A stretch of DNA of 61,379 nt from a virus (Duplodnaviria > Caudoviricetes), in the IMG/VR virus record IMGVR_UViG_3300036846_000573, positions 1 to 61,379 of that record. One strand, 5' to 3'. Made by a program: the position numbers and the translations under genes. The number at the start of each line of letters is the position of its first letter. Position 1 is the first letter of the stretch. Below the pieces are notes generated by a model that saw only the letters and a list, made by a program, of their open reading frames with translations, was not told the origin of the DNA and made no database searches. Positions 6,288 to 24,605 of this stretch are shown here, in pieces.

Positions 6288-6316
6288 GCATGCTTAGCTA
6301 TCGCTAAGCAATAAAG

Positions 6317-6346: not shown

Positions 6347-6384
6347 GATACTACACTACAGTAGTGGAGCTAGAGAGGTGACCA

Positions 6385-7149
6385 ATGCCCAAACGCGCGG
6401 CGGCGTTGAAATACAACCCGCATCGAACCAAACAAGGATTACCTACATTCGAGCTTAAATCAGTCTACCAGCGTGGGAGCGGCGCGGTTCAGCGCACGAT
6501 GAATGTGCGATGCGCCGAGTGCTTAGAGACAACATATCTGCCTTGGACCAGCGTGCTCAACACGCCGGAGATTGTCACTAAAAAGTTTCAAAGTTTAGGG
6601 TGGGAGTTCGATGCGTATAAATCACGCTCGTGCATCTGCCCGAAATGTCTGTCGGACAGCAAGCCGAAGCCTGAACCCTCGCAGGCTCGTGCTGATGCGA
6701 AGCTTGAACCCAAGCGCCTCGTCATACAGGCGCAGACGTTCATGAATAGTATAACACCACCACCACCACCACCACCACCACCACCGATGGAGCAACCGAT
6801 GGCGACAAACCAAACACCACCACCAACCGCACCGGCCCTAAAGCTCCCAAGAGCGATCACGGCCGACGAGCGGGCAAAGGTACGCGCGCTGCTGGATATT
6901 AATTTCGACGACACCAAGGGCATGTATATCGACGGATATTCCGACATGCGGATCGGTGCGGAGGTCAACGTGCCGTGGGCAACGGTCGCGATTATCCGCG
7001 AGGCGGCGTACGGACCCATACGGGAAGACCAGCGGGTTACCGAGATCCGCGCCGAGATTGCCAGACTACGTTCTGATATGTTATTGTTTAATAACAGGAT
7101 CGAGCAGGTCGAGGCTAAGATCAACAATCTTCTAAAGGACCCTAAATAG
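6385..7149 (+). CDS. Hypothetical protein with Zn-binding motif and poly-Pro linker
   Basis: CAEC...CPKC; (CCA)n run at ~6756-6786. Confidence 0.75.
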   Translation: MPKRAAALKYNPHRTKQGLPTFELKSVYQRGSGAVQRTMNVRCAECLETTYLPWTSVLNTPEIVTKKFQSLGWEFDAYKSRSCICPKCLSDSKPKPEPSQARADAKLEPKRLVIQAQTFMNSITPPPPPPPPPPMEQPMATNQTPPPTAPALKLPRAITADERAKVRALLDINFDDTKGMYIDGYSDMRIGAEVNVPWATVAIIREAAYGPIREDQRVTEIRAEIARLRSDMLLFNNRIEQVEAKINNLLKDPK

Positions 7150-8280: not shown

Positions 8281-8281
8281 G

Positions 8282-8818
8282 GTGGCAGAGAAAATTCAAA
8301 AGAAAGTATTGCATAGCTGGGATGGTATGTGGTGCCGTCATTGCGGCTGGAGGTACGACCGCGTCCCGTCAGTATGGTGTCATATTGTCACCCACGACAT
8401 GCCGCGCTTCCATGTATTTTTAACCATGGCGGCGCGGCACAGCGTGAATTATCGCTATGTCAACGTCGTTGAACTAAAGCCACGGAGCAAGCATCTTCCC
8501 GTTAGCATTAGGTCAAGAGAGGTGAAGCAGGTATTATGGCGCTCGATCACGCCGTTGCGTATCACTGCGAGCACGGTCGAGTATGGGTATCTAGACCTAA
8601 GCTCAGCCGGTCCCGCTATCGAGATGTTCGCGCACGCTAAGAACGTGATCGAGAAACTCGACAGGATGAACCTGTCACTACAGGTAGCGGATTTAGAGGA
8701 CGAGCTAGGGTTAGAAGGTAAAGGCGACCGCACGAGCTTGCGAGGTGTCGCCGAGTTATTCAACCATCTATGGAGCGAGGAACTAAATGTCCAGTCATCG
8801 GATGTCTCTGCCGCGTAA
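8282..8818 (+). CDS. Hypothetical protein
   Basis: ORF in operon. Confidence 0.6.
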   Translation: MAEKIQKKVLHSWDGMWCRHCGWRYDRVPSVWCHIVTHDMPRFHVFLTMAARHSVNYRYVNVVELKPRSKHLPVSIRSREVKQVLWRSITPLRITASTVEYGYLDLSSAGPAIEMFAHAKNVIEKLDRMNLSLQVADLEDELGLEGKGDRTSLRGVAELFNHLWSEELNVQSSDVSAA

Positions 8819-10232
8819 GGTCGTCCTTACCCGGGAGCAGGAAGAGACGCGGCTTGCGGCGCACGCTGCGTTTATGAAATACGCGGCGTTCTTTGCGTAT
8901 TTTTACTATGATCAGGTCGAGGAATATCCCACGCTGGGAGTGCCGACGGCGGCGACCGACGGCAAGCGGCACTTTTTCAATCCGGAATATTATTCTAAAC
9001 TAAAACCCTTGGAGCGCTGTTTCGCCAAGGCGCACGAGGTCTGGCATATAATTTATAAACATCCCCAGCGCATGAAGTTCTATGCGCAGCAGGGGAACCT
9101 CGATGGGTTGCCGTTCATCCCCGCGTTATTTAATACTGCAGCGGATTACGTTATTAATGCAGACCTGATTGCCAGCAAGATAGGCACCTGCAACCCGAAC
9201 TGGTTGTACGACCCGAGATTCACAGGCGATATGCTGGCGGAGGATGTGTATAAGATATTATACAACGAGTTGCCCAAGCCGCCGCCACAACCGCCGGGTC
9301 GAGGCAAAGGTCCAGAGGGTTACCCCGGCCCCGGTGGTAAGCCGGGCGACGAGAAAGGTCCGGGGGGTTATCCTGGCCCCACGACTGGTAGTGGGGACGA
9401 GCCCAACGACGAACCCCAACCCGGCGAACCAACCATAACCGGGTTCAAGCCAAAGACCTATGGCGGCAAGAACTCCCCGCCGGATAAGGTGGCCGAAGCC
9501 AACAACGGCATGATGGACGAGATCCTGCCGCCGATGACCGACCCGGATACCGGCAAAGACGACGTGGCGTCGGAGATGGAGTTCAAGGAAGCCATCGCGC
9601 GAGCGGTCGACGAGGTGGAGAAATCCCACGGCACATTGCCCGGAAGTATCAAGCGGGTGGTGAAAGATATCCTGGAGCCGCAGGTCGAGTGGCGCGAGAA
9701 GATCCGCATGGAGGTGACCGGCAAGATCGGGTGGCGCGGCGAGACGTGGGAGCGGCCCAACCGCAGGCGATTGGTTTTATCTGCGATGGGCAGCGGGCTG
9801 CCGGTGTACATGCCGGGGCGCTCGCGGTTCGGTGCCGAGCTTGTGGTCTGCGTCGTGGATAACTCCGGCAGTATCAGCGAGCGGGAGCTAAGCGCGTTCT
9901 TTGGCGAGATGAACGGGATACTCTCGGATTGCAGGCCCAAGAACATCATGGTGATCTGGTGCGACGCTAAAATTCATCGGGTTGCCGAGGCGTCGAGCCT
10001 GGACGAGCTAAGCGACATCAGGGTGAAGGGATCGACAGGCGGCGGCGGCACCGACTTCAAGCCGCCATTCGAGTATCTGTCGGAGAAGAACCTTAAGCCC
10101 GACACGCTGGTGTATCTCACCGATATGGAGCCGGGTTATGGCTGGCCCGCCGACCCGGGTTATCCAACAATCTGGTGCGCGACGACGGATCGCGTGGGTC
10201 CGTTCGGCGAGACCGTGCGCGTTAAGGTGTAA
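8787..10232 (+). CDS. DUF2201-type metallopeptidase-VWA protein
   Basis: TAATDG, HEVWH (HExxH), MIDAS DNSGS, GGGTDF, YLTD. Confidence 0.85.
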   Translation: MSSHRMSLPRKVVLTREQEETRLAAHAAFMKYAAFFAYFYYDQVEEYPTLGVPTAATDGKRHFFNPEYYSKLKPLERCFAKAHEVWHIIYKHPQRMKFYAQQGNLDGLPFIPALFNTAADYVINADLIASKIGTCNPNWLYDPRFTGDMLAEDVYKILYNELPKPPPQPPGRGKGPEGYPGPGGKPGDEKGPGGYPGPTTGSGDEPNDEPQPGEPTITGFKPKTYGGKNSPPDKVAEANNGMMDEILPPMTDPDTGKDDVASEMEFKEAIARAVDEVEKSHGTLPGSIKRVVKDILEPQVEWREKIRMEVTGKIGWRGETWERPNRRRLVLSAMGSGLPVYMPGRSRFGAELVVCVVDNSGSISERELSAFFGEMNGILSDCRPKNIMVIWCDAKIHRVAEASSLDELSDIRVKGSTGGGGTDFKPPFEYLSEKNLKPDTLVYLTDMEPGYGWPADPGYPTIWCATTDRVGPFGETVRVKV

Positions 10233-10256
10233 TAAGTTAACCAATGGAGCAAGACG

Positions 10257-10460
10257 ATGAGCGAGTATGCGTTTGATATAAAATTATGGGCCGTTGTTCG
10301 CATCACCGCTAACAGCGAGGCGGAGGCGCGCAAGCTGCTAAGCAAGATCGACTGCATCGGCCTCGCCTACCACGACAACGATATCGTGCTGACCGAGGCT
10401 AGCATCGAGGACGATGGCGGCCAGAGCGAGCTATTCGAGATCGACAGCGAGCCGGTATGA
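10257..10460 (+). CDS. Hypothetical protein
   Basis: GGAG RBS. Confidence 0.7.
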   Translation: MSEYAFDIKLWAVVRITANSEAEARKLLSKIDCIGLAYHDNDIVLTEASIEDDGGQSELFEIDSEPV

Positions 10461-10789
10461 GCGACGATGATAAGCCGGGAAGGATAACTCTGCGCCCGGT
10501 GACACTCCCGGTGTTGACACCGGGGGTGCACAACCCCGAAGATGCACCGTGGTGGGAGTTCACCTGCGACGAAGTGGACCCCACGACGGTCGTGACACAG
10601 TGGATGGGGCAGGCCGCTCAGGTTTTTGGGCAGCGGCTTGCCAACCGTGCGGCGAGCGGCAGCGTCATCGTCGAGTGTATGTATATGTCGCTCGATGGAG
10701 CGAGCGGACTATACAGGGTAATAGCCCACGGTCGTCGAGTTCATAACTACATCGTGATCAGTCGCGGTGACATGGTCGAGAAACCTTAA
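10457..10789 (+). CDS. Hypothetical protein
   Basis: ATGA coupling. Confidence 0.65.
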   Translation: MSDDDKPGRITLRPVTLPVLTPGVHNPEDAPWWEFTCDEVDPTTVVTQWMGQAAQVFGQRLANRAASGSVIVECMYMSLDGASGLYRVIAHGRRVHNYIVISRGDMVEKP

Positions 10790-10804
10790 AATGGAGCTAC
10801 CACA

Positions 10805-11569
10805 ATGCCTAACTGGAAAATCACGGATAATCTTAAGTGGGAGGTCAAGCGTGAGGTAACTCGCCTGATGGAGCTGCGCGTCAAGGCGGTGTATCAGGAC
10901 TTCCCGCTGAGCCACAACGACATTGAGCGGGCGACGACACCGGAGTGGGCGCGCAGGAATTTAGCGGAGTTAAAGAAAGCCGGGGCCGAGTCGATCACGC
11001 GGACCGATAGGATTAATGCCAGACTTAGCGGCGAGGGTATCACGCGGGCAGCATTGGTGGGTATGCACTCGGATAAACAATTATATTATATGTACGAAGC
11101 GCAAGCCCACTGGCGCTACGCCAGGGATGAGTTCAAGAAACATGACACCGGCAAGCTGCCGTTCGATCTTAGCGTGCTAGACCCGGAGACCAGGGCTAAG
11201 CTTGTCACCTGGGTCAACACCGCTGTTCGAGAGCGGCGCATCTGTTCTGGCACCGAGAACTTGGCGGGGGTGTTCCTATCCTCCTATTGCCCGACACTGG
11301 CGCATATGAATGCGCGCTGGCCGGACCTGAAGGTGGTATTCGGCAAGCTCGACGGTAACTGGCCGCAACGTATACGTAACCTGCCGATGCGCGAGTTGTC
11401 ACGCTGGCAGTGGCCGGAGCAGTATAATTCTGAGCGCGACTGGTTCGAGTCGAACAAGCTGCGCCTGGAAGCAGCGGGGCAAGTCCTGGCCGGGGCATTA
11501 TTCCTCGACCGTAAGGTGGAGTACCCAAAGACCAGCACGTCGGGTATCATCGATAGTTGGGAGGGGTGA
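10805..11569 (+). CDS. Hypothetical protein, 254 aa
   Basis: GGAGCTACCACA RBS. Confidence 0.8.
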   Translation: MPNWKITDNLKWEVKREVTRLMELRVKAVYQDFPLSHNDIERATTPEWARRNLAELKKAGAESITRTDRINARLSGEGITRAALVGMHSDKQLYYMYEAQAHWRYARDEFKKHDTGKLPFDLSVLDPETRAKLVTWVNTAVRERRICSGTENLAGVFLSSYCPTLAHMNARWPDLKVVFGKLDGNWPQRIRNLPMRELSRWQWPEQYNSERDWFESNKLRLEAAGQVLAGALFLDRKVEYPKTSTSGIIDSWEG

Positions 11570-11570
11570 G

Positions 11571-13487
11571 GTGATAATTTCGGGGGATTTCGAGACATAC
11601 TGGTCCAAGGATTATTCCCTAACCAAGCTGTCAGAGGTCGAGTACGTCCTCGACCCGAGGTTCCAGGTCATCATGCTCGCCCTCAAGCTGGGTGACCAAC
11701 CTAGTAAGGTATATGTCGGATACGACGCTATCGCCCGCCGCCTCCAGTCCATCGACTGGGGGCGCGCGGCGTGGCTGAGCCATAACACCCGCTTTGATGG
11801 AAGTATTCTAAGCTGGCACTTTGGCTATGTGCCGAAGCTTTATCTCGACACGCTGAGCATGGCCCGCGCGACGACGCACTGGGTCACCGGGCGTTCGTCG
11901 CTGGCGAAAATCTCCGAGTACCTCAAGCTCCCGCCTAAAGGCGACGAGGTCGTGCGTGCTATGGACAAGCGCCTGGAGGATTTTACCTATGAAGAATTAG
12001 AAAATTATAAAACCTACTGCATGCGGGACAATGATAACTGTTATGAGATATTTAAAAAACTCAGGCCCATATTCTCGGCCAGTGAGCTACAAATAATAGA
12101 TTTAATTTTGCGCATGTTCATCCAGCCGCAAGTGGTTCTCGATACGAGCGTGCTGTCGAGATACCTACAAAATGTGCAGGCCGAGAAGGCTGAGATCCTT
12201 GACCGGGTTCTCGGTGGTATCGACAAGGGCGTGTTTAGCTCGAATCAAAAGTTTGCTAGACTGCTGGAAGACTACGGCGTCGATGTGCCGATGAAACTAT
12301 CCCCGACCACGGGCAAGCTTATCCCTGCCACCGCGCGCAACGACCGTGCGTTTAAACTACTATGCGCCGACGAGGAGCAGCCGCCCGAGGTGCAGGCGCT
12401 GCTGCATGCCCGAGTCAGCGTCAAATCGACGATCGAGGAGACCCGCACCGCAAACCTGCTGCGCCTGTCCTGTTGCAACTGGCCCGATAAGACCAAGGGC
12501 TGGGGGCCGGTGCCGCTCAAATACTCTGGCGCGCGCACGCATCGGCTATCAGGTGACGGCGGCACCAACTGGCAGAACTTCAAACGCGGGTCGCCGATAC
12601 GCGAGGCCATCATGGCCCCGCCGGGCTACCGGGTGGTGCACCGGGACGCATCGCAGATCGAGGCGCGCATGGTGGCATGGCTGGCGCAGTGCCATAGCCT
12701 TACCTCCGCCTTTGCCATGGGCCGGGATGTCTACTCCGAGTTTGCCACCGCGATATATGGGCGCGGGATAACCAAGGCCAACACGCTGGAAAGATTTGTC
12801 GGCAAGACTGCAATCCTGGGTCTCGGTTATGGCTGCGGCGTTGAGAAGTTTCAGCATATGTTATTCATTGGCAATGGCGGCCTGAGCCTCAACGTGACGC
12901 CGGAGTTTGCCAAGTCTACAGTTTACCAATATCGCAATACATACTACGAGATCCCCGCATTGTGGGCGCATGTCGAACATTTGCTGGCGGATCTGGTGCA
13001 GCTAGCGCGCCGCCCCCGCCAGTTCTCGTTCTTCGAGTCACTACACACAGCGATGCCCTCGCTCTCACTACCAGTCGTGACAGGGTTCGATGCATTATGG
13101 TTACCCAACGGATTATGTATTAACTATCCAAACATCAGGTGGTATCGCGACGACCAGACCGGCAAGTGGGAGTTGTGCTACGACGACCCGCAGGGCGTGC
13201 GTAAGATTTATGGCGCCAAAGGCGTCGAGAATATCTCGCAGGCGCTAGCCCGGATCGTCGTGACCGACGCGATGGTACGTACGTACCAAGCAACGGGTTA
13301 CCGGCCGTTTCTGTCGACGCATGATAGTTTGGATTACTGCGTGCCGGAGGACAAGGCCGAGGAAATCGACGCCATGTTATCGAGCCAGTTCGGTATCACG
13401 CCGGACTGGGCAGAGGGCTTGCCCTTGGCAAGCGAAGGCGGCTGGGGGCGCACGCTGCTGGAGGCAGAGCGGGGAGTGAACGCATGA
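11571..13487 (+). CDS. Family A DNA polymerase with 3'-5' exonuclease
   Basis: Exo DFET, HNTRFD, YCMRD; Pol motif A DASQIEAR, motif B RFVGKTAILGLGYG, motif C HDS. Confidence 0.93.
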   Translation: MIISGDFETYWSKDYSLTKLSEVEYVLDPRFQVIMLALKLGDQPSKVYVGYDAIARRLQSIDWGRAAWLSHNTRFDGSILSWHFGYVPKLYLDTLSMARATTHWVTGRSSLAKISEYLKLPPKGDEVVRAMDKRLEDFTYEELENYKTYCMRDNDNCYEIFKKLRPIFSASELQIIDLILRMFIQPQVVLDTSVLSRYLQNVQAEKAEILDRVLGGIDKGVFSSNQKFARLLEDYGVDVPMKLSPTTGKLIPATARNDRAFKLLCADEEQPPEVQALLHARVSVKSTIEETRTANLLRLSCCNWPDKTKGWGPVPLKYSGARTHRLSGDGGTNWQNFKRGSPIREAIMAPPGYRVVHRDASQIEARMVAWLAQCHSLTSAFAMGRDVYSEFATAIYGRGITKANTLERFVGKTAILGLGYGCGVEKFQHMLFIGNGGLSLNVTPEFAKSTVYQYRNTYYEIPALWAHVEHLLADLVQLARRPRQFSFFESLHTAMPSLSLPVVTGFDALWLPNGLCINYPNIRWYRDDQTGKWELCYDDPQGVRKIYGAKGVENISQALARIVVTDAMVRTYQATGYRPFLSTHDSLDYCVPEDKAEEIDAMLSSQFGITPDWAEGLPLASEGGWGRTLLEAERGVNA

Positions 13488-13807
13488 GCGTGTGGCATTA
13501 TACCCCGACGCCGTCGACTGCCGCCGCGATGGCGGTGCTGCGGGCACACCGCGCGGCTCAGATCGCCATTGCCCAGCAGGTTGCGGTGCATCTTATCAGG
13601 CGGAAGGGCAAGACCAACAGCCGCGAGGTGTGGGAGGTCATGCGCCTGACCGGCGTGCTCGACACGACGGTCAAGGACCACTGGCTGGGGGCGGTGTTTC
13701 GCGACAAGGCGGTGTTTAAATGGACCGGCACCTACGTGATACCGACGCTGCCCAATGGCACGCTGATCCACCAGCAGCGTCACGTAAAGGAATGGACATT
13801 AATATGA
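13484..13807 (+). CDS. Hypothetical protein
   Basis: Coupled ORF. Confidence 0.65.
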   Translation: MSVWHYTPTPSTAAAMAVLRAHRAAQIAIAQQVAVHLIRRKGKTNSREVWEVMRLTGVLDTTVKDHWLGAVFRDKAVFKWTGTYVIPTLPNGTLIHQQRHVKEWTLI

Positions 13808-14481
13808 ATGGTATGAGAGAATTTGCGTGGAGCTACTCCAGGCTCAAATCGTTCGAGACCTGCCCGAAGCGACACCTTCATTACGATATATTGAAAGATA
13901 TAAAAGAACCTGAGACCGGGCAGATGGCCGAGGGCAACGCTGTCCATAAGGCGTTAGAACTTAGAATAAAGACGAAGCAAAAACTCCCCCTCGGGATGGG
14001 GCAGTACGAGGAGATTGCCTCCAAGCTCGAAACCCTGCCGGGTGAGATCTACACCGAGCAGAAACTCGCGCTGACCGAGGAGTTCAAACCCGTCGCGTTT
14101 TTTGGCAAGGGCGTGTGGTTCAGGACCGTCGTGGATTTTTGTAATGTGGAGGGGGAACGCGCGGCTGTCATCGACTACAAGACCGGCAAGCCGGCCGAGG
14201 ACAGGACGCAACTGCAATTATTATCGGCGACGGTGTTTCACCACCAGCCCGATGTCCAGCGCATCAGCGCCCGGCTGTTGTTTTTAAACCACGACCACGC
14301 GGAGCGTGCGCTGTTTATGCGCAATGATTTATCGGGGATATGGTCGAGCATGCTGCCGAGGGTGAAGAGATTACGCAAGGCTATGGAGGATCAGGAGTAC
14401 CCGCCTAAACCCAGCGGGTTGTGCCGGCGATACTGTGCCGTGGTCAGTTGCCCGTATCACGGAGTAGGATCAGCGCCATGA
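13804..14481 (+). CDS. PD-(D/E)XK (RecB/Cas4-like) exonuclease
   Basis: WSYSRLKSFETCP, GNAVH, IDYKTGK, C-terminal CRRYC...CPY; start taken at ATG 13804. Confidence 0.88.
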   Translation: MNGMREFAWSYSRLKSFETCPKRHLHYDILKDIKEPETGQMAEGNAVHKALELRIKTKQKLPLGMGQYEEIASKLETLPGEIYTEQKLALTEEFKPVAFFGKGVWFRTVVDFCNVEGERAAVIDYKTGKPAEDRTQLQLLSATVFHHQPDVQRISARLLFLNHDHAERALFMRNDLSGIWSSMLPRVKRLRKAMEDQEYPPKPSGLCRRYCAVVSCPYHGVGSAP

Positions 14482-14759
14482 GTGTTATTAATAACAATGT
14501 TATTAGCAACAACGCCTATGCCGGTCAGTATTTCGATACCATCATCGCCAGCCAGCTTCCCGGTGATTTATTAAAACGTTTAGATCTTACAGCAGAAGTG
14601 ACGTCCGATCCGTATTTTCTAAAGACCGTACTAAGATTAACCAGTAAAAACCATGGTATAGACTTGACAATTGATCTCGAACCCTTACGTACTGGCAGCC
14701 GGGAGGCATGCCTTAAGGTGCCGGAGTTAATCATCACGCATCTGTGTGCCGTGAGATGA
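14478..14759 (+). CDS. Hypothetical protein
   Basis: Coupled ORF, ATG 14478. Confidence 0.6.
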   Translation: MSVINNNVISNNAYAGQYFDTIIASQLPGDLLKRLDLTAEVTSDPYFLKTVLRLTSKNHGIDLTIDLEPLRTGSREACLKVPELIITHLCAVR

Positions 14760-15067
14760 CACCCGAGAGTAAAATCAAGCGTGTCATCAGCACGCTGTTA
14801 AAATCTTATGGTCACGAGGTGTTTTATTATATGCCGGTGCCGACCGGGTACGGTGGGACCATCGTGGATTACGTAGGATTTTGCTGCGGGTTGGGGTTCG
14901 CCATCGAGGCCAAGGCGCCGGGTAGGAAGCCGACTGTCCGTCAGAAAGCGACGATGGAGAAAATCTCCGAGGCCGGCGCAAAAACTTTTATCATCGATGG
15001 ACCAAAGGGTGTCGGTGAGTTAGACGAGTGGCTGACCACTACCTGTCGTGAAAGCCGTAAATCGTGA
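14756..15067 (+). CDS. VRR-NUC domain nuclease / Holliday junction resolvase
   Basis: TPESKIK, D...AIEAKAPGRKPTVRQ. Confidence 0.85.
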   Translation: MTPESKIKRVISTLLKSYGHEVFYYMPVPTGYGGTIVDYVGFCCGLGFAIEAKAPGRKPTVRQKATMEKISEAGAKTFIIDGPKGVGELDEWLTTTCRESRKS

Positions 15068-15938
15068 GAGCACCGAGATAAGGGAGCGAGCCGTAAGTCG
15101 TGAGAGTACCGATGTGGATGAGTGAGCCGAACGATGTGAGAGTACCGACCAAAGGGAGCGAGCCGCACCACAAGAGAGAACCGTCGAGATGAAGCGAGCC
15201 GCGAACGAAGAGAGAACCGTCTCTCGGGAGCGAACCGAGTTATGTGAGAGGACCGAGAGGTGCGAGTGAGCCGTGCGATATGAGAGAACCGTCGCTTGTG
15301 AGCGCAGCCGTACTGGCTGAGAGAACCGAGGTGAATGAGCGAGCCGTTGGTCACGAGAGTACCGAGCAAGAGGAGTGAGCCGAAGGTCGCGAGAGTACCG
15401 AGTAAGTCGAGTGAGCCGTGCTACCCGAGAGAACCGTGATGAACGAGCGAGCCGACGGTCACGAGAGTACCGAGGAAATCGAGCGGCTACTCGCTTGGGT
15501 GGCTGGTATTTGGCCCAGTCTGGAGGCGCAACTGCGCGCAGCCATAAGCCGAGTGTTACAAGAGAACCGAGATAGATGAGCGAGCCGGAACTGCTGAGAG
15601 TACCGTGTTGCCCGAGTGAGCCGAATGTATCGAGAGAGCCGTGAACCAAGAGCGAACCGAGTGCTGCGAGAGGACCGAAAATACGGAGTGAGCCGCATCA
15701 TCAGAGAGAACCGAAAGTTCTGAGTAAGCCGTGTACCAGGAGAGAACCGAAACCGCTGAGCGAGCCGTACGTCGTGAGAGAACCGAAAGTTCTGAGCGAG
15801 CCGTCCGTGATGAAAGAACCGAGGAATGCGAGCCGAGTGTCACGAGAGAACCGAGATCGTTGAGTGAGCCGACTACTAAGAGAGAACCGCACCGTATGAG
15901 TGAGCCGAGTTCACTGAGAGCACCGAAAGCGCTGAGCG
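15053..15938 (+). repeat. TIGR-like array 1: 23 units of 36 nt, with one interruption
   Basis: Alternating GAGYGAGCCG and GAGAGWACCG repeats separated by variable 8-nt spacers; 12 units, ~60-nt insert at 15486-15546, then 11 units. Confidence 0.92.
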
Positions 15939-15949
15939 TAATTTAACCA

Positions 15950-17536
15950 ATGGAGCCCCCTAAAATGTACGTCACGCAGGACACTCTGCATGTCGTTGTG
16001 CCATGGCGCGCCGACCTGCAGCAAGTCATCCCTCATGCGCGATCGTTTGTGTATAACAACGAGCGCATGCTGCTCGTACCCAACCGGCATGAGGAAGCCA
16101 AGGTCGCGAGAAATCTAGGCGTCCCGATACCAGCGCCCATACTTACACGTTACGACTGGCGCGGCGGCACGCCGTGGGATACTCAAAAAACCACGTCGGC
16201 AATGCTGACCGAATCACCCCGCGCCTATGTGCTCAACGAGTTTGGCACGGGTAAGACGCGGAGCGTGATATGGGCGGCCGACTATCTGCGGCGCAACCAA
16301 GCCATCGGCAAGGTCTTGATCGCCGCGCCGTTGAGCACACTCACACCGGTGTGGGAGACTGAGTTATTTAGGGTGATCCCCAATGCGCGGGTAAAAGTTT
16401 TACACGGCAACAAGGAGACGCGCCTCGAACGTCTGAACACTGATGCCGATTGGTTTATTATAAATCATCATGGGTTGGCATTGATCAAGGACGAACTGAT
16501 CAAGCGTGGTTTTGATGTGGTTGTGTTCGACGAGTTGGCGACGTTTCGTAATCGGTCGACCCAACTCTGGAAGACCGCCAATGAGATCATTCAAGGCGGC
16601 CCGGCTTACGCCAACAACCCTAAACCAAAATATGTCTGGGGATTGACCGGATCACCGACACCCAAGGCGCCGACCGATGCCTGGGGGCAAGTGAGATTGC
16701 TAACCCCGGAAAGAACCACGAAAAGCCTTACTCGGTTTCGCGATTTAACCATGCGCCAGATCACGAGCTTTAAATGGATCAAGCGCCCGGGAGCGATGGA
16801 CATCGTGCAGGAGGCGATGCAACCATCCGTTCGCTTCGCGTTGTCTGATGTTGTCGAGCTACCCGACACAACGTACCAGACGCGGGTGGTGGAGTTGGAG
16901 AGCGAAGCGCGTCGAGCCTATAAAATTATGTTCGATAAGATGAGAGTCCTAACCAATAACGGCGAGACAATCACCGCTGTCAACGAGGGTGTGCTGCAAT
17001 CTAAGTTACTACAGCTAGCGCTGGGTTATATCTACACCGATAAGCGTGGCGTCATGAAGCTTCCGAACGCGACGCGGTTGGAGGTAGTGAAAGAAATCGT
17101 CGAGGCGACATCGCGCAAGGTTATATGTTTTGTGCCATTCATTCACGCGCTCGAAGGCGTGGCGGAGTACTTACAGAAATACACGACGGTTGCGGTGGTG
17201 CACGGACAGACACCGGTGGGTGCGCGCAATAAAATTTTCCGCAGTTTTATGGAGCAATCAGAACCACATACGATCGTGGCGCATCCCGGGTGTATGTCAC
17301 ACGGCTTGACACTCACAGCGGCCAATACCATTGTGTGGGTTGGACCGACCAATTCATATGAAACGTACGAACAGGCTAACGCCAGGATCGTAAGGCCGGG
17401 TCAGGTGTCGAAGACGCTGATCGTGCATGTCGTTGCGACGCCTGTCGAGAAGCTGGCTTACAAGCGCCTGCAAGAGCGTGGGACATTTCAGGGCATGTTG
17501 TTGGAATTGTTCCGGCAACAGGAGTTAGAGTTTTAG
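15950..17536 (+). CDS. SNF2-family (SF2) helicase
   Basis: GTGKT, APLS, FDELA, LTGSP, HGLTLT, QANARIVRPGQ. Confidence 0.92.
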   Translation: MEPPKMYVTQDTLHVVVPWRADLQQVIPHARSFVYNNERMLLVPNRHEEAKVARNLGVPIPAPILTRYDWRGGTPWDTQKTTSAMLTESPRAYVLNEFGTGKTRSVIWAADYLRRNQAIGKVLIAAPLSTLTPVWETELFRVIPNARVKVLHGNKETRLERLNTDADWFIINHHGLALIKDELIKRGFDVVVFDELATFRNRSTQLWKTANEIIQGGPAYANNPKPKYVWGLTGSPTPKAPTDAWGQVRLLTPERTTKSLTRFRDLTMRQITSFKWIKRPGAMDIVQEAMQPSVRFALSDVVELPDTTYQTRVVELESEARRAYKIMFDKMRVLTNNGETITAVNEGVLQSKLLQLALGYIYTDKRGVMKLPNATRLEVVKEIVEATSRKVICFVPFIHALEGVAEYLQKYTTVAVVHGQTPVGARNKIFRSFMEQSEPHTIVAHPGCMSHGLTLTAANTIVWVGPTNSYETYEQANARIVRPGQVSKTLIVHVVATPVEKLAYKRLQERGTFQGMLLELFRQQELEF

Positions 17537-18310
17537 CCGCTTTGTCGGAGAGTGCCGAGTACCGTGAGCGAGCGAGCCGTTCCAAAGGAGAGGGCCGTAT
17601 GGGATGAGCGAGCCGTCAGGGCATGAGAGTACCGGATAGAATGAGCGGGCCGATTGTGATGTGAGCACCGTCAGTATCGAGCGAGCCGTTTGGTCTGAGA
17701 GTACCGAGAGTTGTGAGCGAGCCGGCAGCGAGGAGAGGACCGATCGTCTAGAGCGAGCCGTGCCGGAAGAGAGCGCCGTCTACGAGGAGTGAGCCGCCCA
17801 TCATGAGAGAACCGAGTAGCACGAGCGAGCCGGGCTGTGTGAGAGCACCGATTTGAGGAGTGAGCCGAGAAACAGGAGAGAACCGAAGTAGATGAGTGAG
17901 CCGAAGAACCGGAGAGAACCGGTGAGCAAGAGCGAGCCGAAGAACAAGAGAGAACCGCGCCCGTTGAGTGAGCCGAAGTGCATGAGAGTACCGCGTCCGA
18001 CGAGCGAGCCGCTCGACCTGAGAGAACCGTGGACGAAGAGTGAGAGGCGAGCCGAAACTAGCGAGAGAGCCGAGAGAGTTGAGCAAATGAGTGAGCCGGT
18101 CAACGTGAGAGAACCGTATGAAGTGAGCGAGCCGGCCCGTATGAGAGAACCGTAGGCGGGGAGCGAGCCGAGGAAGATGGAGAGAACCGCACAGCTAGAG
18201 CGAGCCGCCCGCCATGAGAGAACCATCCGCCAAGAGTGAGCCGCCAAGTATGAGAGTACCGTGATGCGTGAGCGAGCCGTTTGATATGAGAGTACCGTCT
18301 CGCCTGAGTG
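17535..18310 (+). repeat. TIGR-like array 2: 21 units
   Basis: Same dual-repeat/dual-spacer 36-nt unit, with a few 7- or 9-nt spacers and short insertions. Confidence 0.92.
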
Positions 18311-18350
18311 TAAATTTTAACTTATCAATCTTAACTTAGGAGCTACCACA

Positions 18351-19346
18351 ATGAGCGACGATGTTACGCCGAGCACATCAACCACACCCACGCCGATCAC
18401 GATGCGCGAGGCGCTCGACGAGCTAACGTTTATCGAGAGATTGACCAAGCGCGACATGGACGCGGCCAAGCTGCTGGGCGAGGCCGAGGTCAGATATCTC
18501 GTAGACGCGTACTATATAGCACAAGAGGATCGAAAGCGCACCGCTGCCCAGGTCCGCGCGCTGACGACGATCACCGAGGCGCACCCCCACGCCGAGCCGA
18601 GCATCATCGTCAACTGGCTGCGCAGCCAGAACGACACGATCGAGGGGCAGATCAAGCGAGTTCTCGATGCGTATACACAACAGCATATCATGGGGCCGTG
18701 GATGCGCGACGTGTTTGGCATCGGCCCGGTGCTGAGCGCGGGTCTTCTCGCGCATATCTATATGGGCCTATGGTGCGCCGTCTGTCACGGTCACGACGAA
18801 GAAGACTGCCAGCGTCGGCAGAATAACCCTAAGCTTAAGCTATCAGAACATACGTACCAGCCGGTCGAGAGCCTCCCGACAGTCGGTCATATCTGGGCAT
18901 TTGCGGGAATTGCCGGCAAGGATCAGAAGCCTTGGGGCAAGAACCAAAAGCGGCCCTACAATGCCAAGCTGAAAGTCTTGCAGTGGAAGGTCGGGCAGTC
19001 GTTTATGTGGTTCAGCTATAACGGCAAGTGCTACTATGGTCAGGAGTACCGCCGCCGCAAAGAGTACGAGATCGCGCGCAACGTGCCCGGCGGCTGGAAC
19101 GCAGCGGAAGTCGAGCGCCGGCTGAACGACAAGATGCGTAAGCCGACAGAGGATGCGATGAAGTATTTATCCCAGGGCATCCTGCCACCAGCGGCGATGG
19201 ATGGCAGGGCCAGACGTTACGCCACTAAGAAGTTCCTAGCGCATATGCATAATGTGTGGTTCGAGAAAAAGTTTGGCCGTCCTGCGCCGCTGCCCTACCC
19301 GATCGATATACTCGGCCACGCGCATTACGAGCCACCGCCTGTCTAA
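18351..19346 (+). CDS. tasA: Nop-domain / IS110 C-terminal-like RNA-binding protein, TasA-like, no nuclease domain
   Basis: Coiled coil, FGIGPVLSAGLLA, IWAFAG, YNAKLK, RARRYATKKFLAH; no RuvC/DEDD or HNH motif; lies directly after array 2. Confidence 0.8.
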   Translation: MSDDVTPSTSTTPTPITMREALDELTFIERLTKRDMDAAKLLGEAEVRYLVDAYYIAQEDRKRTAAQVRALTTITEAHPHAEPSIIVNWLRSQNDTIEGQIKRVLDAYTQQHIMGPWMRDVFGIGPVLSAGLLAHIYMGLWCAVCHGHDEEDCQRRQNNPKLKLSEHTYQPVESLPTVGHIWAFAGIAGKDQKPWGKNQKRPYNAKLKVLQWKVGQSFMWFSYNGKCYYGQEYRRRKEYEIARNVPGGWNAAEVERRLNDKMRKPTEDAMKYLSQGILPPAAMDGRARRYATKKFLAHMHNVWFEKKFGRPAPLPYPIDILGHAHYEPPPV

Positions 19347-19379
19347 ACTCCTTACCACCCTTACCCTAATGGAGCTACC

Positions 19380-19769
19380 GTGCCAATGTCACCAAGCGAG
19401 ATGATCGACAAGTACATTAAATTAAGAAACGTTATAAATAAGATCAAGGACGATCACAAGACACAACTAGAGCCCTACACCAATGTGATGAACCAACTCG
19501 AAACTGAGATCCTGCGCCACCTCGACGATACTAACTTACAATCTATCAGCAGTCCGAGCGGCACGGCGTTCAAGCAGATTGCTACGAGCGTTGTCGTGAA
19601 GGACTGGCCGCAAACCCTGGGTTATATCCAGCAATACGAACTATGGGATCTGCTCGAAGCGCGGGTCTCGAAGACAGCGGCGCTCGAAGTCGTCGAGGAA
19701 ACTAAAAAACCAATCCCGGGCGTGCAAATATCCCAGGCGGTGGTTGTGCGAGTGCGCGTATCATCGTGA
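19380..19769 (+). CDS. Hypothetical replication-module protein
   Basis: RBS; helical N-terminus. Confidence 0.75.
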   Translation: MPMSPSEMIDKYIKLRNVINKIKDDHKTQLEPYTNVMNQLETEILRHLDDTNLQSISSPSGTAFKQIATSVVVKDWPQTLGYIQQYELWDLLEARVSKTAALEVVEETKKPIPGVQISQAVVVRVRVSS

Positions 19770-19797
19770 AGCTACCACAGTTCAACAGGAGACAGCT

Positions 19798-20853
19798 ATG
19801 TCACTAATACCATTAGACTCCAACCGCATACCGGCGGCGTTCGCCGGGCGTCGGTCGACGATGCTCGACAATGCCCGTGCGGGCGTGCAGAGTTCGTTTG
19901 CCGTAATCAGTGTTAAAGGCCGCGTGTGGAGGACCAAGCACCGAGGGGAGGAAACGCCTGTGCTGGATGCGCGCGGCCAACCGGTAGCAACACTCGAAGT
20001 TGTTATCGTTGGCGTCGCGCCCAATGTCAGCAAGACGTTTTATCAAAAGGGTTTTGTCGAGGGCAGCGACGACTCACCGGATTGTTTCTCGCTCGACGGG
20101 ATCGCGCCCGACGCAACTGCGCCTAAGAAGCAGAACGAGACCTGCGCTACGTGTCCGCAGAATATGTGGGGTTCGCGTGTCACCGACAACGGCAAGCGGG
20201 CCAAAGCCTGTTCCGACCAGCGGCGCATCGCGGTAGTGCCGACGGGCGACATCCTTAATAAGAACATGGGCGGGCCGATGTTGCTGCGTCTGCCACCGAC
20301 CTCGCTTCCCAACCTCGCTTCCTACAGCGATTTTTTGGAGCGCAAGGGCGCCGACTTCCCCTACGTCGCAACGAGGTTGGGGTTCGATTACGACGTCGCG
20401 TATCCGAAGGTCAGCTTCGACGCGCTGGGATATCTCGACGATGCGCAAGCCGCGCAAGTCGTCGAGGTGATGAGCAACCCGCTGATCGACAGGATGCTCT
20501 ACGAAGCAGCCCCTACCGAGTTGGGAGCCGCAGTGGCGGCGGGCGTTAAGCCGGGCGGGCAGGTTGTCCCGATGGCGCGTCCGGCGATAGGTCCAGCAAC
20601 GGTGCCGGCGGCTCCCCCGGTAGCGACGCCTCAGAAGGTGCCGTACAATCCGTTCGCGACGGCTGCGCCAGCAGAGCCTGCACCTACATCGCCACCGCCG
20701 GCCCCGGTCATCGAACAGCCACCCACAGAAACTGTCGAGGCAACCCCGGCTCGGGCTTCCAACAGACGGCGGCAGCCGTTACCTTCGCCGATCACCGCGC
20801 CGCCCGATCTGGCGGGGGCAATCGACGACCTGCTCGACGAGCAGTCGGCATAG
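19798..20853 (+). CDS. Putative ssDNA-binding/annealing protein
   Basis: PDCFSLDG..CATCPQN..KAC; Pro-rich linker; acidic tail; start ATG 19798. Confidence 0.6.
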   Translation: MSLIPLDSNRIPAAFAGRRSTMLDNARAGVQSSFAVISVKGRVWRTKHRGEETPVLDARGQPVATLEVVIVGVAPNVSKTFYQKGFVEGSDDSPDCFSLDGIAPDATAPKKQNETCATCPQNMWGSRVTDNGKRAKACSDQRRIAVVPTGDILNKNMGGPMLLRLPPTSLPNLASYSDFLERKGADFPYVATRLGFDYDVAYPKVSFDALGYLDDAQAAQVVEVMSNPLIDRMLYEAAPTELGAAVAAGVKPGGQVVPMARPAIGPATVPAAPPVATPQKVPYNPFATAAPAEPAPTSPPPAPVIEQPPTETVEATPARASNRRRQPLPSPITAPPDLAGAIDDLLDEQSA

Positions 20854-20889
20854 AGCCGCTACTCCAGAGAGAACCGCAAGCAATGAGCG
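20853..20889 (+). ncRNA. Solitary TIGR-like guide unit
   Basis: GAGCCG-ctactcca-GAGAGAACCG-caagcaat-GAGCG. Confidence 0.85.
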
Positions 20890-20902
20890 CTAGATAAAAA
20901 AT

Positions 20903-20941
20903 CGGCGGGTTCGAGCTACCACCCTCGAACCCGCCGCATTT
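20903..20941 (+). terminator. Terminator-like hairpin after the solitary guide
   Basis: CGGCGGGTTCGAG-8 nt-CTCGAACCCGCCG then CATTT. Confidence 0.65.
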
Positions 20942-20975
20942 GATCCACCCCGGTGGCCTGTGGAGCAGGCCCGTG

Positions 20976-23858
20976 ATGAACCTAGAACAATTCCTCGACC
21001 GCCTTGTTGCACCGGGAAACTTCCTGGTCGTCGCCACAAAAGTGCCCAGTGGCATCGCCCATAGATTTATCCCGCGCAGTGACGTAGCCGGTGCGAGTAA
21101 CTTCATTAAGCACGTTTCGAGTAAAAATCAAGAGGTTTGGATAGCCTTAGCCAGCTACGTAACGAAGCGTAACCGGACTCAAGACAATGTCGAAGGTCTT
21201 AAGGTATTCTGGATGGATGCCGACATCCAGCGTATTGGCGATGGCAAAGATCCCTCAAAAGTATTCGCTGATCGTCGCGAAGTTTTAACCTGGGTAAAAC
21301 ATTTCTGTAATACGACTGGCATTCCCCGGCCCAATTTATGGGTCTGCAGCGGCTATGGACTGCACCTTTATTGGACATTCGAGAACGCGCTGACCAAGGA
21401 TGATTGGCAGCCTTATGCCGACGCGTTGAAGACTGCGCTCATACAGGACAGAGCGAAGGGCGACACCAGCATCGTCGCCGACAGTGCACGCATCCTGCGC
21501 CCGATCGAGAGTTTTAACTTCAAGGACCCGGCCAATCCTGCGCCGACCTATGAGTTTTATCCCGACCGGCTGACACAGCCCGACTATCCGAACGGCAAGC
21601 TGCTCGGTGCGTTGGCGGCGTTGCCTCACTACGGTAGTGGGGTTACCCGCCTTCCGCTTCCCAACCGCGCCTCACCCGGGCAGACACCGATGACCGCCGC
21701 CGCGAAGGCCGGCCTCGCGAAGCGCCCGTATAGTTTTGAGATCGTCGCATCTAAGTGCGCGCAGGTACGGAAGTCGTTGGACGAAGGCGGCGCTCACGAC
21801 GGGCGACAGATCTGGTGGAGGATGGTAGGGCTCGCATGGTTCTGCCAGGACGGACGGGAGTTCGCGCACCGGGTCGGTAACCAGCACAAGGACTATACCC
21901 AGGCCGGCACCGACAAGGAGTTTGACCGGCTTAGTGGTGAGCATGCTGCGAAAAAATTTGGTGCGCCAACCTGCAAGGCGTTCGATGCAGAGCGGCCCGG
22001 CATCTGCCCTGGCTGCGAGTATTACAATACGATCGACTCCCCGTATACGCTGGGGGTTGTCGAGAATACGACACCGGACGCTATACCCAGAGGATGGCAG
22101 CGTCATAATGGACACATCGAGCGTAAAAACAAAGATGGCAACTGGGTCACGCTCATACAGGGCGATGTCAGGAACGCCTTTCTCGAACGCATTAAGGACC
22201 ATTACCGCATCACCTTTGACTATCTTAGTAATCAGGGGAGCAAGACCATTCAGGTTGAGGCTCCCGATATCGAGCAGCGCACAGCCAAGCTATTATTCAC
22301 GCTGCGCGGTGTGCCGCTCACCGTCGATAACTCACCGCATTTCGTGAGGCTGATCATGGCCTGGATAGACCTGCTGCGCAGTACGACGGCGACGATCCCC
22401 TATGCCGAGCCGATCCATCCCTTTGGCTGGGTTAACGATGCCGGTGGTGCGCCGCAAGGTCTCGCGGTCGGCGGCACTTATTACAAGACCGATGGCAGCG
22501 AAGAGGCTATCAGTGGCGGCGATGTGGGGATCACCGAGCGTTACCAGCCCACCGGCGTCCTGGCAAAATGGAAAGAGGCAGCGGAACTGGTGATCGGCGT
22601 CGCGCCGGAATTTCAAGTGGCGTTCTCGGTGGCGTTTGGCGCGCCGCTGATGGAGTTCTCCGGCGAGATGTGCCTGTGCCTGTCGTTTGTCGGCCAGTCC
22701 GGCCGTGGCAAGACGTCGGCTTTCCGGGCTGGCGCGTCGGTGTGGGGCGACCCGCGCAAGACGATGGGGCAACTCGACGACACCGAGAATTATATCTCCA
22801 AGCAAATAGGCAGCGTGCGCTCGTTCCCGGTCTACTGGGACGAGGTAAAGATCAACGACCGGCACAAGGCCCAGGATCTAAAGACCCTACTGCACAAGCT
22901 CACGCAAGGCCGGGATCGCGGCCGGCTGCAGCCGGACATCCAGGTGCGAGCGATGGGCGACTGGAAGACACTGTTTCCGTTTGCGTCCAACGACAGCCTG
23001 ATCTCTGCCCTCTCTAATACCCCGGGAGATAACAGCGCTACGTTGTTACGTCTCCTGGAGATCCCCGTCGATAGCGCGCCGCGCATCGTGCCCGACGTCG
23101 CCAAGGCGATGACCGTGTCGCAACTGGACAACCACTACGGCCACGCCGGGCGGGTTTTTATCAAGTGGCTGGTTGCCAACACCACGCTGGCGGCAAAGAT
23201 AGTCGAGCGCTGCAAAGTCGATTTAATCAAGATTACCCGGGCGACAAACGAGGAGCGGTTCTATATCGCCGGCGGCGCGGCTATCCTGGCCGGCGCCGGC
23301 ATCGCGCGCAAACTAAAGCTCGTAGATAATTTAGACATCGCGGCGATGCAGCGGGTCATCGTCGCGGCGATCCGGCGCGCCAAGGATCTGCGCACCGAGC
23401 ACGCGCCGACCGACCCGCGCGAGATCGCCGCGCAATGGCTGGAGAGGTTCTGCGATATTTATACGGGCGAGCGCATCGTGACCCGCTCGATCCCGACCAG
23501 CGGTGCGGCCAGCCTTGCCGCCGGGCAGGCGAAGTTTACAGTCTACCCGCCACTGTCAAATCGCCCATTGGCATTTCAAATAGGTGCCGACGACAAGATC
23601 ATGCGGATCAACAAAAATCTCTGGCGCGATTGGATATTATCCAAGGGCGGGTCACCCGACCGGCTGGAGGAGACCATGGAGAAATCCGGCTGGATGCTGC
23701 ACAGGCTAGCTCGCGGGCGCGGCAAGCTAGGTGCTAACACGCTGTTCCAGTCGCAGCAAATTCCCGTGATAGAGTTAAACCTGCAGCACCCCGACCTGAT
23801 GGGGTTTGCCCAGGATGGGGTTACGGCAACCAGTAACGTTATACAGATGCGACCTTAG
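20976..23858 (+). CDS. Primase-helicase (AEP/RepB-like primase, Cys cluster, DUF927/SF3-type ATPase)
   Basis: WMDAD, SGYGLHLYW, DSARILR, CPGC, Walker A GQSGRGKT, WDE; start uncertain (20940-20976). Confidence 0.85.
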   Translation: MNLEQFLDRLVAPGNFLVVATKVPSGIAHRFIPRSDVAGASNFIKHVSSKNQEVWIALASYVTKRNRTQDNVEGLKVFWMDADIQRIGDGKDPSKVFADRREVLTWVKHFCNTTGIPRPNLWVCSGYGLHLYWTFENALTKDDWQPYADALKTALIQDRAKGDTSIVADSARILRPIESFNFKDPANPAPTYEFYPDRLTQPDYPNGKLLGALAALPHYGSGVTRLPLPNRASPGQTPMTAAAKAGLAKRPYSFEIVASKCAQVRKSLDEGGAHDGRQIWWRMVGLAWFCQDGREFAHRVGNQHKDYTQAGTDKEFDRLSGEHAAKKFGAPTCKAFDAERPGICPGCEYYNTIDSPYTLGVVENTTPDAIPRGWQRHNGHIERKNKDGNWVTLIQGDVRNAFLERIKDHYRITFDYLSNQGSKTIQVEAPDIEQRTAKLLFTLRGVPLTVDNSPHFVRLIMAWIDLLRSTTATIPYAEPIHPFGWVNDAGGAPQGLAVGGTYYKTDGSEEAISGGDVGITERYQPTGVLAKWKEAAELVIGVAPEFQVAFSVAFGAPLMEFSGEMCLCLSFVGQSGRGKTSAFRAGASVWGDPRKTMGQLDDTENYISKQIGSVRSFPVYWDEVKINDRHKAQDLKTLLHKLTQGRDRGRLQPDIQVRAMGDWKTLFPFASNDSLISALSNTPGDNSATLLRLLEIPVDSAPRIVPDVAKAMTVSQLDNHYGHAGRVFIKWLVANTTLAAKIVERCKVDLIKITRATNEERFYIAGGAAILAGAGIARKLKLVDNLDIAAMQRVIVAAIRRAKDLRTEHAPTDPREIAAQWLERFCDIYTGERIVTRSIPTSGAASLAAGQAKFTVYPPLSNRPLAFQIGADDKIMRINKNLWRDWILSKGGSPDRLEETMEKSGWMLHRLARGRGKLGANTLFQSQQIPVIELNLQHPDLMGFAQDGVTATSNVIQMRP

Positions 23859-24061
23859 TACAACCTGGGGATAAACCTGTGAATGCCGGGGATAGAGTTC
23901 ACGCCGATGGCACCGCGTGCCCGCATCGACTTTAAAAAGTTGTTCGGGTTTGTCTCGTATTCTAACAACATGCGGGAGATCGTGCTGCAGTAGGCACGCT
24001 CTTCCTCGTCCGTTGTCGGGACTACAGGAAAACCCTTAAGGGTGTTGGCTGGCGGGTACAT
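23855..24061 (-). CDS. Hypothetical protein
   Basis: Last ORF of the late operon. Confidence 0.55.
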   Translation of the reverse strand: MYPPANTLKGFPVVPTTDEEERAYCSTISRMLLEYETNPNNFLKSMRARGAIGVNSIPGIHRFIPRLY

Positions 24062-24234
24062 TACCTGAGTTTAGATAACGTCTGGGCAAACCGCGCCCGC
24101 TGACCAACCTTGCCGCCTTTGGCGGCAGCCGCCCTTAGTTTGGATTTCGGGATCGGCTCGCCCTGCGGCACGCCGAGATCCTTGTGCAGTTGCCCGGGTT
24201 TCTTGATTGCCTTCTGGATGAAATTTTTTGCCAT
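24061..24234 (-). CDS. Small basic protein
   Basis: MAKNFIQKAIKKPGQLHKDLGVP...; RBS AAGGGG. Confidence 0.7.
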   Translation of the reverse strand: MAKNFIQKAIKKPGQLHKDLGVPQGEPIPKSKLRAAAAKGGKVGQRARFAQTLSKLR

Positions 24235-24374
24235 TACTTTTTCCCCTTTCTCGACTTGCCGGCTGTAGACATTGCGATAGCTATGGCTTGTTTCTGCGGA
24301 CGCCCGGCAGCCATCTCGGTTTTTATATTTTCCGATATGGTTTTTCTGGAGGAGCCTTTCTTTAAGGGCATAGC

Positions 24375-24605
24375 TCACCTCTCATTAAGCAACCGCCGAA
24401 CCTCGGCGCAGGTCTCGATCACCGCAAAAAACTTATGGTCGGACAGATGCACCAGACAGCGCGCATCAGGATGGGATGTTCTGCCGGGATCGCTGCCATG
24501 GCGTGGCTGGACCAAAGTCGTAATCTCTGCCGGGTTCACATAAACCTCACCCCCATCGAGCCGGTGCAGCATAATAAGCTGCAACGCCGCAAGGAGTTCG
24601 ATCAT
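24375..24605 (-). CDS. FlbD-like small protein
   Basis: LIMLHRLDGGEVYVNPAEITTL...VIETCAEV resembles the FlbD family pattern. Confidence 0.5.
   Translation of the reverse strand: MIELLAALQLIMLHRLDGGEVYVNPAEITTLVQPRHGSDPGRTSHPDARCLVHLSDHKFFAVIETCAEVRRLLNER

Follow-up and report, generated by a model that had tools for sequence, protein, structure and literature searches.

Dual-repeat TIGR arrays flanking the helicase gene in a phage replication operon, with a probable common precursor for their guides

The virus record IMGVR_UViG_3300036846_000573 (61,379 nt, 58% G+C, rated 100% complete and classed as linear in IMG/VR), analysed here over its entire length and referred to as the window, carries two TIGR arrays and one tasA gene within a block of replication genes. 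Genes of the + strand are tightly packed from about 2.5 to 24.5 kb, and the structural genes are on the - strand. The only gaps longer than 100 nt in the + strand block are array 1, array 2 and one 122-nt gap near 24.1 kb. Array 1 (15048-15938) lies between a small nuclease gene and an SNF2-family helicase gene, and array 2 (17535-18310) between the helicase gene and tasA, which confirms an earlier sequence-only reading in which the helicase was sandwiched by arrays inside the replication block (Table 1). Based on its sequence and on the predicted fold of its protein, the locus is a genuine and intact dual-repeat TIGR-TasA system of the published kind (Faure et al., 2025; PMC12045711), and its layout, embedded in an operon and dispersed at the same time, is unusual. 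We consider it probable that the arrays were inserted into two junctions of the replication operon and that they are transcribed and processed from one precursor.

Both arrays are on the tasA strand and are built of two alternating 10-nt repeats, GAGYGAGCCG and GAGAGWACCG, separated by 8-nt variable stretches, giving a period of 18/36 nt. Because the blocks open with the 3' half of the former (AGCCG at 15053 and 17535) and close with its 5' half (GAGCG at 15938, GAGTG at 18310), we assigned GAGYGAGCCG as the edge repeat and GAGAGWACCG as the loop repeat. A total of 44 units and 88 spacers were counted, with the units of array 1a spanning 15053-15485. The one-unit pattern (at most one mismatch) had 74 matches in the window, compared to 0.03 expected from 100 shuffles. 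The 5' half repeat, loop repeat and 3' half repeat all agreed with the consensus in 38 of the 44 units; in the other six, a base of the loop repeat was changed or the length of a spacer or edge repeat differed. Among the spacers, one 8-mer alone was repeated. The G-over-C skew on the transcribed strand reached +0.21 and +0.25 in the arrays, versus +0.02 to +0.08 in the neighbouring genes. The 61-nt linker dividing array 1 presented no unusual fold (z -0.23) and no promoter-like match, and neither the linker nor the irregular stretch of array 2 had a clear relative in the window or in loci L001 to L090. We also searched the whole window for targets with the spacer pairs of 47 units, using four geometries, gaps of 0-12 nt and up to two mismatches. 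No perfect match was found; three 1-mismatch and 81 2-mismatch matches were obtained versus 1-2 and 56-65 in five mispaired-spacer controls, and no own-genome target was called.

Judging from profile matches and a structural model, the protein encoded after array 2 is TasA, a nuclease-less Nop-domain Tas. The single sequence had no match among PDB sequences and a profile was needed: built with 34 homologues, it matched TasR (9mty, E 3.4e-10), TasH (E 9.7e-6) and IS621 (E 0.025). TasA also matched PHROG 4285 (E 1.1e-35). Its AF2 model (pLDDT 82, pTM 0.78) is almost entirely helical, with two short strands that both fall within an insertion at residues 136-176. When this model was compared with the PDB using Foldseek, ranks 1-10 were all chains of TasH or TasR, with E from 2e-6 to 1e-4, and IS110-family recombinases came next. 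A Pfam scan of the 331 residues found no nuclease domain, HNH and RuvC included. All 43 family-invariant residues are kept in this protein, the product of the sole tasA in the genome. Its C-terminal loop reads PLPYPIDILGHAH; Y316 and H323, seven residues apart, are invariant in the 34 homologues and are located in or beside a stretch (residues 317-326) with pLDDT below 50. The insertion at residues ~136-176 has a CxxC...C...H arrangement resembling a zinc ribbon, which is also seen in many relatives and is absent from shorter members. More than 2,500 tasA homologues were found; their source names are 'hypothetical protein' plus one 'putative transcriptional regulator', and some carry the IS110-type domain PF02371. 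The single TasA sequence had no close relatives in viral or metagenome contigs and, by tblastn, no match in GenBank phages at E 1e-5 or E 10; tasA loci were obtained with the profile alone. TasA proteins have been shown to be RNA-guided transcriptional repressors (Xu et al., 2026; 10.64898/2026.09.09.750476).

According to the sequence-only reading, array 1 starts inside the 3' end of the small nuclease gene, whose stop codon is formed by spacer and repeat, and array 2 starts at the helicase stop codon; the coordinates agree with both statements. A degenerate edge repeat, GTGAAAGCCG (15048-15057), falls within the last codons of the small nuclease gene, and about seven codons plus the TGA lie inside the first partial unit of array 1. 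This TGA (15065-15067) is made of the last T of a spacer and the GA of a loop repeat. Since T comes before GAG in roughly half of the units, and between 9 and 21 stop codons occur in every frame of the arrays, any frame entering an array is predicted to meet a stop of this kind. The C-terminal tail of the small nuclease departs from its relatives past the WLTT motif. At array 2, the AG of the helicase TAG (17534-17536) doubles as the start of the first AGCCG; the helicase C-terminus (...LELFRQQELEF, then the stop) is common to relatives, and its native last residue and stop are kept. The nuclease label given earlier to this gene (VRR-NUC) is based on the match to PHROG 93 'endonuclease'; the Pfam VRR_NUC model had no match at E <= 5.

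At their 3' ends, the arrays close with GAGCG or GAGTG followed by TAATTTAAC or TAAATTTTAAC (15934-15947 and 18306-18321), and the last repeat base is 26 nt (array 1) or 40 nt (array 2) from the next start codon. The two tails are indeed similar, as first noted from the letters, but they are not specific to arrays. A 14-nt stretch of the helicase leader, TTAACCAATGGAGC, has an exact copy at 10237-10250, before an array-less gene at 10257, and GGAGCTACCACAATG of the tasA leader has a second copy at 10793-10807, before the gene at 10805. Given that the leaders recur before these two genes, each tail appears to be a truncated edge repeat followed by what is largely the generic ribosome-binding cassette of this phage. 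ATG 15965, and not 15950, is the most likely start of the helicase, because GGAG is found at 15953 and the relatives align from residue 1.

Related phages provided a view of the same junctions. Our helicase search returned seven viral and 14 metagenome loci, corresponding to 18 distinct contigs, and gene order was as in this phage wherever the contigs reach; 3' of the helicase, the Gam-like gene and then orf369 follow in the same order. In three array-less relatives, the stop codon of the nuclease gene overlaps or directly adjoins the start codon of the helicase gene: TAATG (L083), TAGGAATG (L084) and TAAATG (L086). An array before the helicase was found in none of the 18 contigs. Array 1 therefore appears to be an insertion into a coupled gene pair.

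We then looked for signals that could separate the arrays from the surrounding operon. No sigma-70-like promoter was found at the array borders or inside the arrays on the + strand from 13823 to 24120, and the scan of 8000-24500 yielded seven promoter-like sites compared to 8.8 expected from shuffles. Likewise, the + strand scan found no intrinsic terminator at the array borders, including after 15938 and 18310. Together with the co-orientation of arrays and genes, the starts at stop codons and the short 3' gaps, this absence of border signals lends indirect support to the earlier proposal that guides come from the polycistronic replication mRNA; the part of that reading which concerns protein partners is not supported (discussed below). 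Thus, the arrays probably belong to one transcription unit and their guides are probably cut from a polycistronic RNA.

In the scheme that we favour, the arrays would have entered the small nuclease/helicase junction and the helicase/next-gene junction, and the polymerase would read the nuclease gene, array 1, the helicase gene, array 2, tasA and two downstream genes as one precursor. TasA would bind every 36-nt unit and cut each full edge repeat at its middle, which would free up to 44 guides and leave the message in three parts: one upstream, one with the helicase, and one with tasA and the genes downstream. The first and last units, which have a half edge repeat, may stay on the end of the upstream message and on the fronts of the helicase and tasA messages, since full edge repeats were required for the processing of minimal arrays (PMC12045711). 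Loaded with these guides, TasA, which binds DNA and has no nuclease, would be led to DNA outside the phage. In the published systems, arrays placed behind a promoter-driven tas gene were expressed and were processed to 36 nt only when Tas was present; these 36-nt tigRNAs begin and end in the middle of the edge repeat, in a Tas-dependent manner (PMC12045711). The dual-repeat TasH was reported to cut pre-tigRNA via Y289 and H296 on a flexible C-terminal loop (PMC13421893; Xu et al., 2026). For this phage, we infer co-transcription, cutting by TasA itself and any consequence for helicase or tasA expression from the DNA sequence.

To place this layout within its family, we performed a profile search for tasA loci in IMG/VR, confirmed 232 of 300 candidates and examined the best 80. 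A unit-like motif was present on the tasA strand in 59 of these 80 loci; it was also on the other strand in three (L057, L058, L064) and never there alone. The remaining 21 loci had repeats that do not fit the unit motif. With the window included (81 loci), arrays were positioned only downstream of tasA in 53 cases, on both sides in 17 and only upstream in six; degenerate arrays escape the periodicity detector (that of L036 was noticed by eye only), and array-less counts are upper bounds. The 36-nt periodicity of downstream arrays begins within 20 nt of the tasA stop in 53 of 71 loci, and at or before the stop in 28 of 71. For upstream arrays, the last repeat is at most 40 nt from the tasA start in 15 of 19 junctions, the other four (L047, L053, L061 and L063) giving no clear reading. 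On these two counts, an array abutting its neighbour gene seems to be the family norm. What is unusual in this phage is that the genes abutting the arrays are not tasA. In loci L006, L007, L056 and L059, a truncated edge repeat, (G)GAGCG, is found at Shine-Dalgarno distance from the tasA start (see also L036, 7020-7042); in such loci, binding of the last unit by TasA could hide the ribosome-binding site of its own gene. Within 7 kb of tasA (E < 1e-5), a homologue of the small nuclease was found in nine of the 80 loci, PolA in five, a PD-(D/E)XK protein in five and SNF2 in three. In L036, the array-tasA cassette sits between the polymerase and small-nuclease genes of the same replication module. 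Locus L064 (3968-8324) has, on one strand, a YqaJ-type exonuclease gene, an array, RecT, an array, tasA and a third array and, by its gene content, represents a separate instance in which arrays alternate with genes for recombination.

TIGR units also occur alone in this genome. The solo units are bounded like mature guides, with half edge repeats at both ends, and as they end exactly where guides are expected to end, an array can formally be described as a chain of guide-sized modules, which may have a bearing on the origin of arrays. The 116-nt region near 20.9 kb that holds a solo unit directly 3' of orf369 and a hairpin, a pair not mentioned in the sequence-only reading, had a fold z of -3.3, and 20854-20936 may mark where the replication transcription unit ends on its 3' side, or act as an attenuator of it. 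Toward the contig ends, the hairpin at 298-323 and 61307-61332 is predicted to be a strong terminator in the + direction, with seven T, and less strong when read as - strand.

Several observations weigh against a single precursor cut by TasA. Two weak promoter-like sites (9 of 12) lie inside the helicase gene, at 16434-16461 and 17207-17235. The promoter scan used a sigma-70-type consensus only, which may not be that of the host, and the linker could hold an unrecognised promoter. Unlike the typical arrays of Faure et al. (2025), arrays 1 and 2 end without a terminator. The existence of free-standing units, one of them with a perfect TATAAT, makes independent guide transcription an option in this genome. 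With respect to the cutting step, the TasH profile match covers positions 148-242 only, Y316/H323 were likened to Y289/H296 of SpTasH by spacing and not by alignment, and the Y-to-H spacing differs in the TasA of a related phage, G001. Finally, a run search listed one holder of the sequence, soil metagenome DNA that is possibly the source sample, and no RNA run. These points bear on a rival explanation in which the arrays are independent transcription units, with promoters of their own missed by the consensus scan and an intergenic position that reflects available space. Such units would fit the weak sites in the helicase gene, the TATAAT located 5 nt upstream of the solo unit at 332-367 (- strand) and the hairpins that follow three solo units, and sequence alone cannot settle co-transcription versus separate promoters (Xu et al., 2026). 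We nevertheless regard this explanation as unlikely: no border site was found and promoter-like counts were at shuffle level, the arrays open at stop codons and close 26-40 nt before start codons, and the flanking genes overlap or abut in the three array-less relatives. Moreover, without read-through, helicase and tasA would both need new promoters inside the arrays. Another explanation is that the arrays are decaying or selfish repeats without present function. Their irregular edge repeats, the 61-nt interruption, one shortened unit and the own-genome target search that gave none would be in line with decay. This is very improbable given the proportion of units that parse fully to the consensus and the single 8-mer repeated among the spacers, contrary to recent slippage, as well as a tasA that is intact, with its invariant residues and a confident fold.

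The sequence-only reading had further suggested that one of three neighbours (helicase, small nuclease or Cas4-like PD-(D/E)XK nuclease) might be a partner of TasA, and had named synteny in related phages as a check. In the corresponding rival explanation, the neighbour would work with guide-loaded TasA, and the arrays would flank the helicase for that reason. We ran this comparison and the helicase-tasA linkage was not kept. Among the 80 tasA loci, an SNF2 helicase adjoined tasA or an array in none; the helicase and tasA are 3-6 kb apart in L019, L036 and L072, and their order varies. An array at the helicase stop was found in one of the 18 helicase contigs, the related 61.9-kb phage G001. 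Only one of five related phage records searched has tasA, and none was found in three sister phages with the same replication module and a completeness of at least 99%. The helicase/Gam-like junction holds other cargo in relatives: L081 has a sigma-factor-like gene there, L082, a phage without arrays and without tasA, has a ParB-like gene (5572-6456; PHROG 1033, E 1.7e-7), and small ORFs are present elsewhere; based on these sequences, it is a hot spot for unrelated accessory genes. In L064, RecT and not a helicase stands between the arrays. Partnership would be compatible with the array at the helicase stop of G001 and with the frequent location of tasA in phage replication modules (as seen from the counts above), but the evidence as a whole speaks against the three proteins as TasA partners, and we consider a functional partnership very improbable.

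G001 itself deserves some attention. Its helicase is 69% identical to that of the window and a 6-unit TIGR array starts at the helicase TAA, with repeats of a different type, GCGCGAGCCC and GCGAGAACCC. Its TasA is intact and 39% identical, and is encoded ~10.5 kb upstream of the helicase with its own arrays. We read the helicase-stop arrays of the two phages as a sign of a shared insertion hot spot, a preference for the site being also possible. In G001 (L090), units were observed at six places or more, on both strands: after the helicase, in the orf254/polymerase gap, on both sides of tasA, another ~7 kb upstream and, on the opposite strand, around 53.9 kb. A rather speculative extension, which we hold to be doubtful, is that TIGR units act as operon punctuation and have spread as guide-sized modules in this phage lineage. 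Arrays or solo units stand at gene 3' ends and junctions in at least five places in the window and at least six in G001, up to tens of kb from tasA, and the array at the helicase stop codon is present in two phages with different Tas lineages. If this were true, the limits of the helicase and tasA messages, and perhaps also how stable they are, would be determined by TasA cutting, and the solo units would capture array seeding in progress, an open question for TIGR systems.

The closest published systems are the dual-repeat TIGR-TasA systems such as FpTIGR (PMC12045711), which share with this locus a nuclease-less Nop-domain Tas, a 36-nt unit, a phage origin and alternating edge and loop repeats of 8-12 nt. 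A typical dual-repeat array was described as 5-15 units beside tas, after which a rho-independent terminator is predicted (PMC12045711), whereas in this phage the 44 units are divided between two arrays that lie upstream of tasA on either side of the helicase gene, with none directly downstream of tasA, a terminator after neither array, and solo units 1.5 kb to ~42 kb away. The best structural matches of the TasA model belong to SpTIGR-TasH of Salicola phage CGphi29 (PDB 9W02-9W04, 21KL; PMC13421893). SpTIGR likewise has 16 variable nt per guide (2 x 8; Faure et al., 2025), and SpTasH a C-terminal loop with Tyr and His seven apart. However, SpTasH has an N-terminal HNH nuclease and cuts DNA, while the TasA studied here has no nuclease, and Foldseek identity was 15-19%. 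In the tasParB-tasA operons (Faure et al., 2025), dual-repeat arrays are also found upstream, downstream and sometimes between a second gene and tasA. Those operons enclose a conserved ParB-like partner; here the enclosed gene encodes an SNF2 replication helicase whose linkage is not conserved (RecT in L064), and with SNF2 within 7 kb of tasA in three of the 80 loci and adjacent in none, the helicase does not qualify as a dedicated partner of the tasParB type.

Two other comparisons concern guides and messages. Intragenic tigRNAs in tas, described by Xu et al. (2026), are alike in that guide units overlap coding sequence, and these authors raise a possible link of guide maturation to mRNA. Their units are inside tas and mostly from stem-loop systems, whereas here a dual-repeat array overlaps the 3' ends of genes other than tas. 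Polycistronic box C/D snoRNA clusters, to which TIGR systems were compared (PMC12045711), also have several Nop-bound guides cut from one transcript, but they involve other proteins, targets (RNA methylation) and organisms, and this system is not a member. The word 'helicase' is absent from the main texts of both studies (PMC12045711; 10.64898/2026.09.09.750476). Four supplementary files of the former, whose text is possibly incomplete, contained neither a 17-residue peptide of TasA nor the words 'helicase' or 'SNF2', and TIGRSafari was outside this search. Expression of arrays in the native host, the role of a nuclease-free TasA for the phage and the origin of arrays are presented as open in these two studies. 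The locus is not a new kind of system. It could serve as a natural test case in which guide production is hard to part from the expression of an essential replication helicase, suited to tests of co-transcription, Tas-dependent mRNA cutting and tasA feedback. Array-less sister phages show the ancestral junctions, and free-standing single guides are available in the same genome for comparison.

Table 1. Arrays, solo units, leaders and genes annotated in the window.
Feature	Positions	Strand	Composition or evidence
TIGR array 1, whole	15048-15938	+	12 + 11 units around 61-nt linker
Array 1a	15048-15485	+	12 units, 36 nt each except one of 37, preceded by a degenerate 5' edge repeat; ends GAGCG
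Non-repeat linker between arrays 1a and 1b	15486-15546	+	61 nt
Array 1b	15547-15938	+	11 units; edge repeat 4 nt short at 15830; ends GAGCG
Helicase leader	15939-15964	+	TAATTTAACCAATGGAGC + 8 nt, then ATG
Array 2	17535-18310	+	21 units; irregular edge repeats at 17566, 18038, 18081; ends GAGTG
tasA leader	18311-18350	+	TAAATTTTAAC...GGAGCTACCACA, then ATG
tasA, 331 aa	18351-19346	+	
Solo 36-nt unit, directly 3' of orf369 TAG	20854-20889	+	unit pattern, AGCCG-N8-GAGAGAACCG-N8-GAGCG
13-bp GC-rich hairpin	20903-20936	+	A-tract before, weak U-tail after
Candidate degenerate solo unit near hairpin, in gap after major capsid gene, opposite late genes	51688-51723	+	one-mismatch match
Solo unit, then GC-rich hairpin	61091-61126	-	
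Solo unit, then A-tract and predicted 11-bp hairpin terminator (61307-61332)	61341-61376	-	
Solo unit, near-identical copy of 61341-61376	332-367	-	TATAAT 373-378 (-), 5 nt upstream
Metallopeptidase/VWA protein	8787-10232	+	Pfam/PHROG
Family A DNA polymerase	11571-13487	+	Pfam/PHROG
PD-(D/E)XK 'Cas4-like' nuclease	13720-14481	+	Pfam/PHROG
orf112	14421-14759	+	
Small endonuclease-like gene, 103 aa from ATG 14756 (in frame with GTG 14744)	14756-15067	+	PHROG 93 'endonuclease', E 3.9e-10
SNF2-family helicase, 523 aa	15965-17536	+	Pfam SNF2-rel_dom 1e-15, Helicase_C 1.4e-13; PHROG 62, 2.4e-95
Gam-like protein / PHROG 13900	19380-19769	+	Pfam/PHROG
orf369	19744-20853	+	Pfam/PHROG
Primase/helicase	20940-23858	+	

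A scan of the whole window with Rfam matched no family. The two ends of the contig (1-370 and 60893-61379) are similar and not identical, with base differences and ~120 nt, including one solo unit, found at one end only. This likeness may reflect a terminal redundancy made imperfect by mixed strains, or else a pair of paralogous copies.

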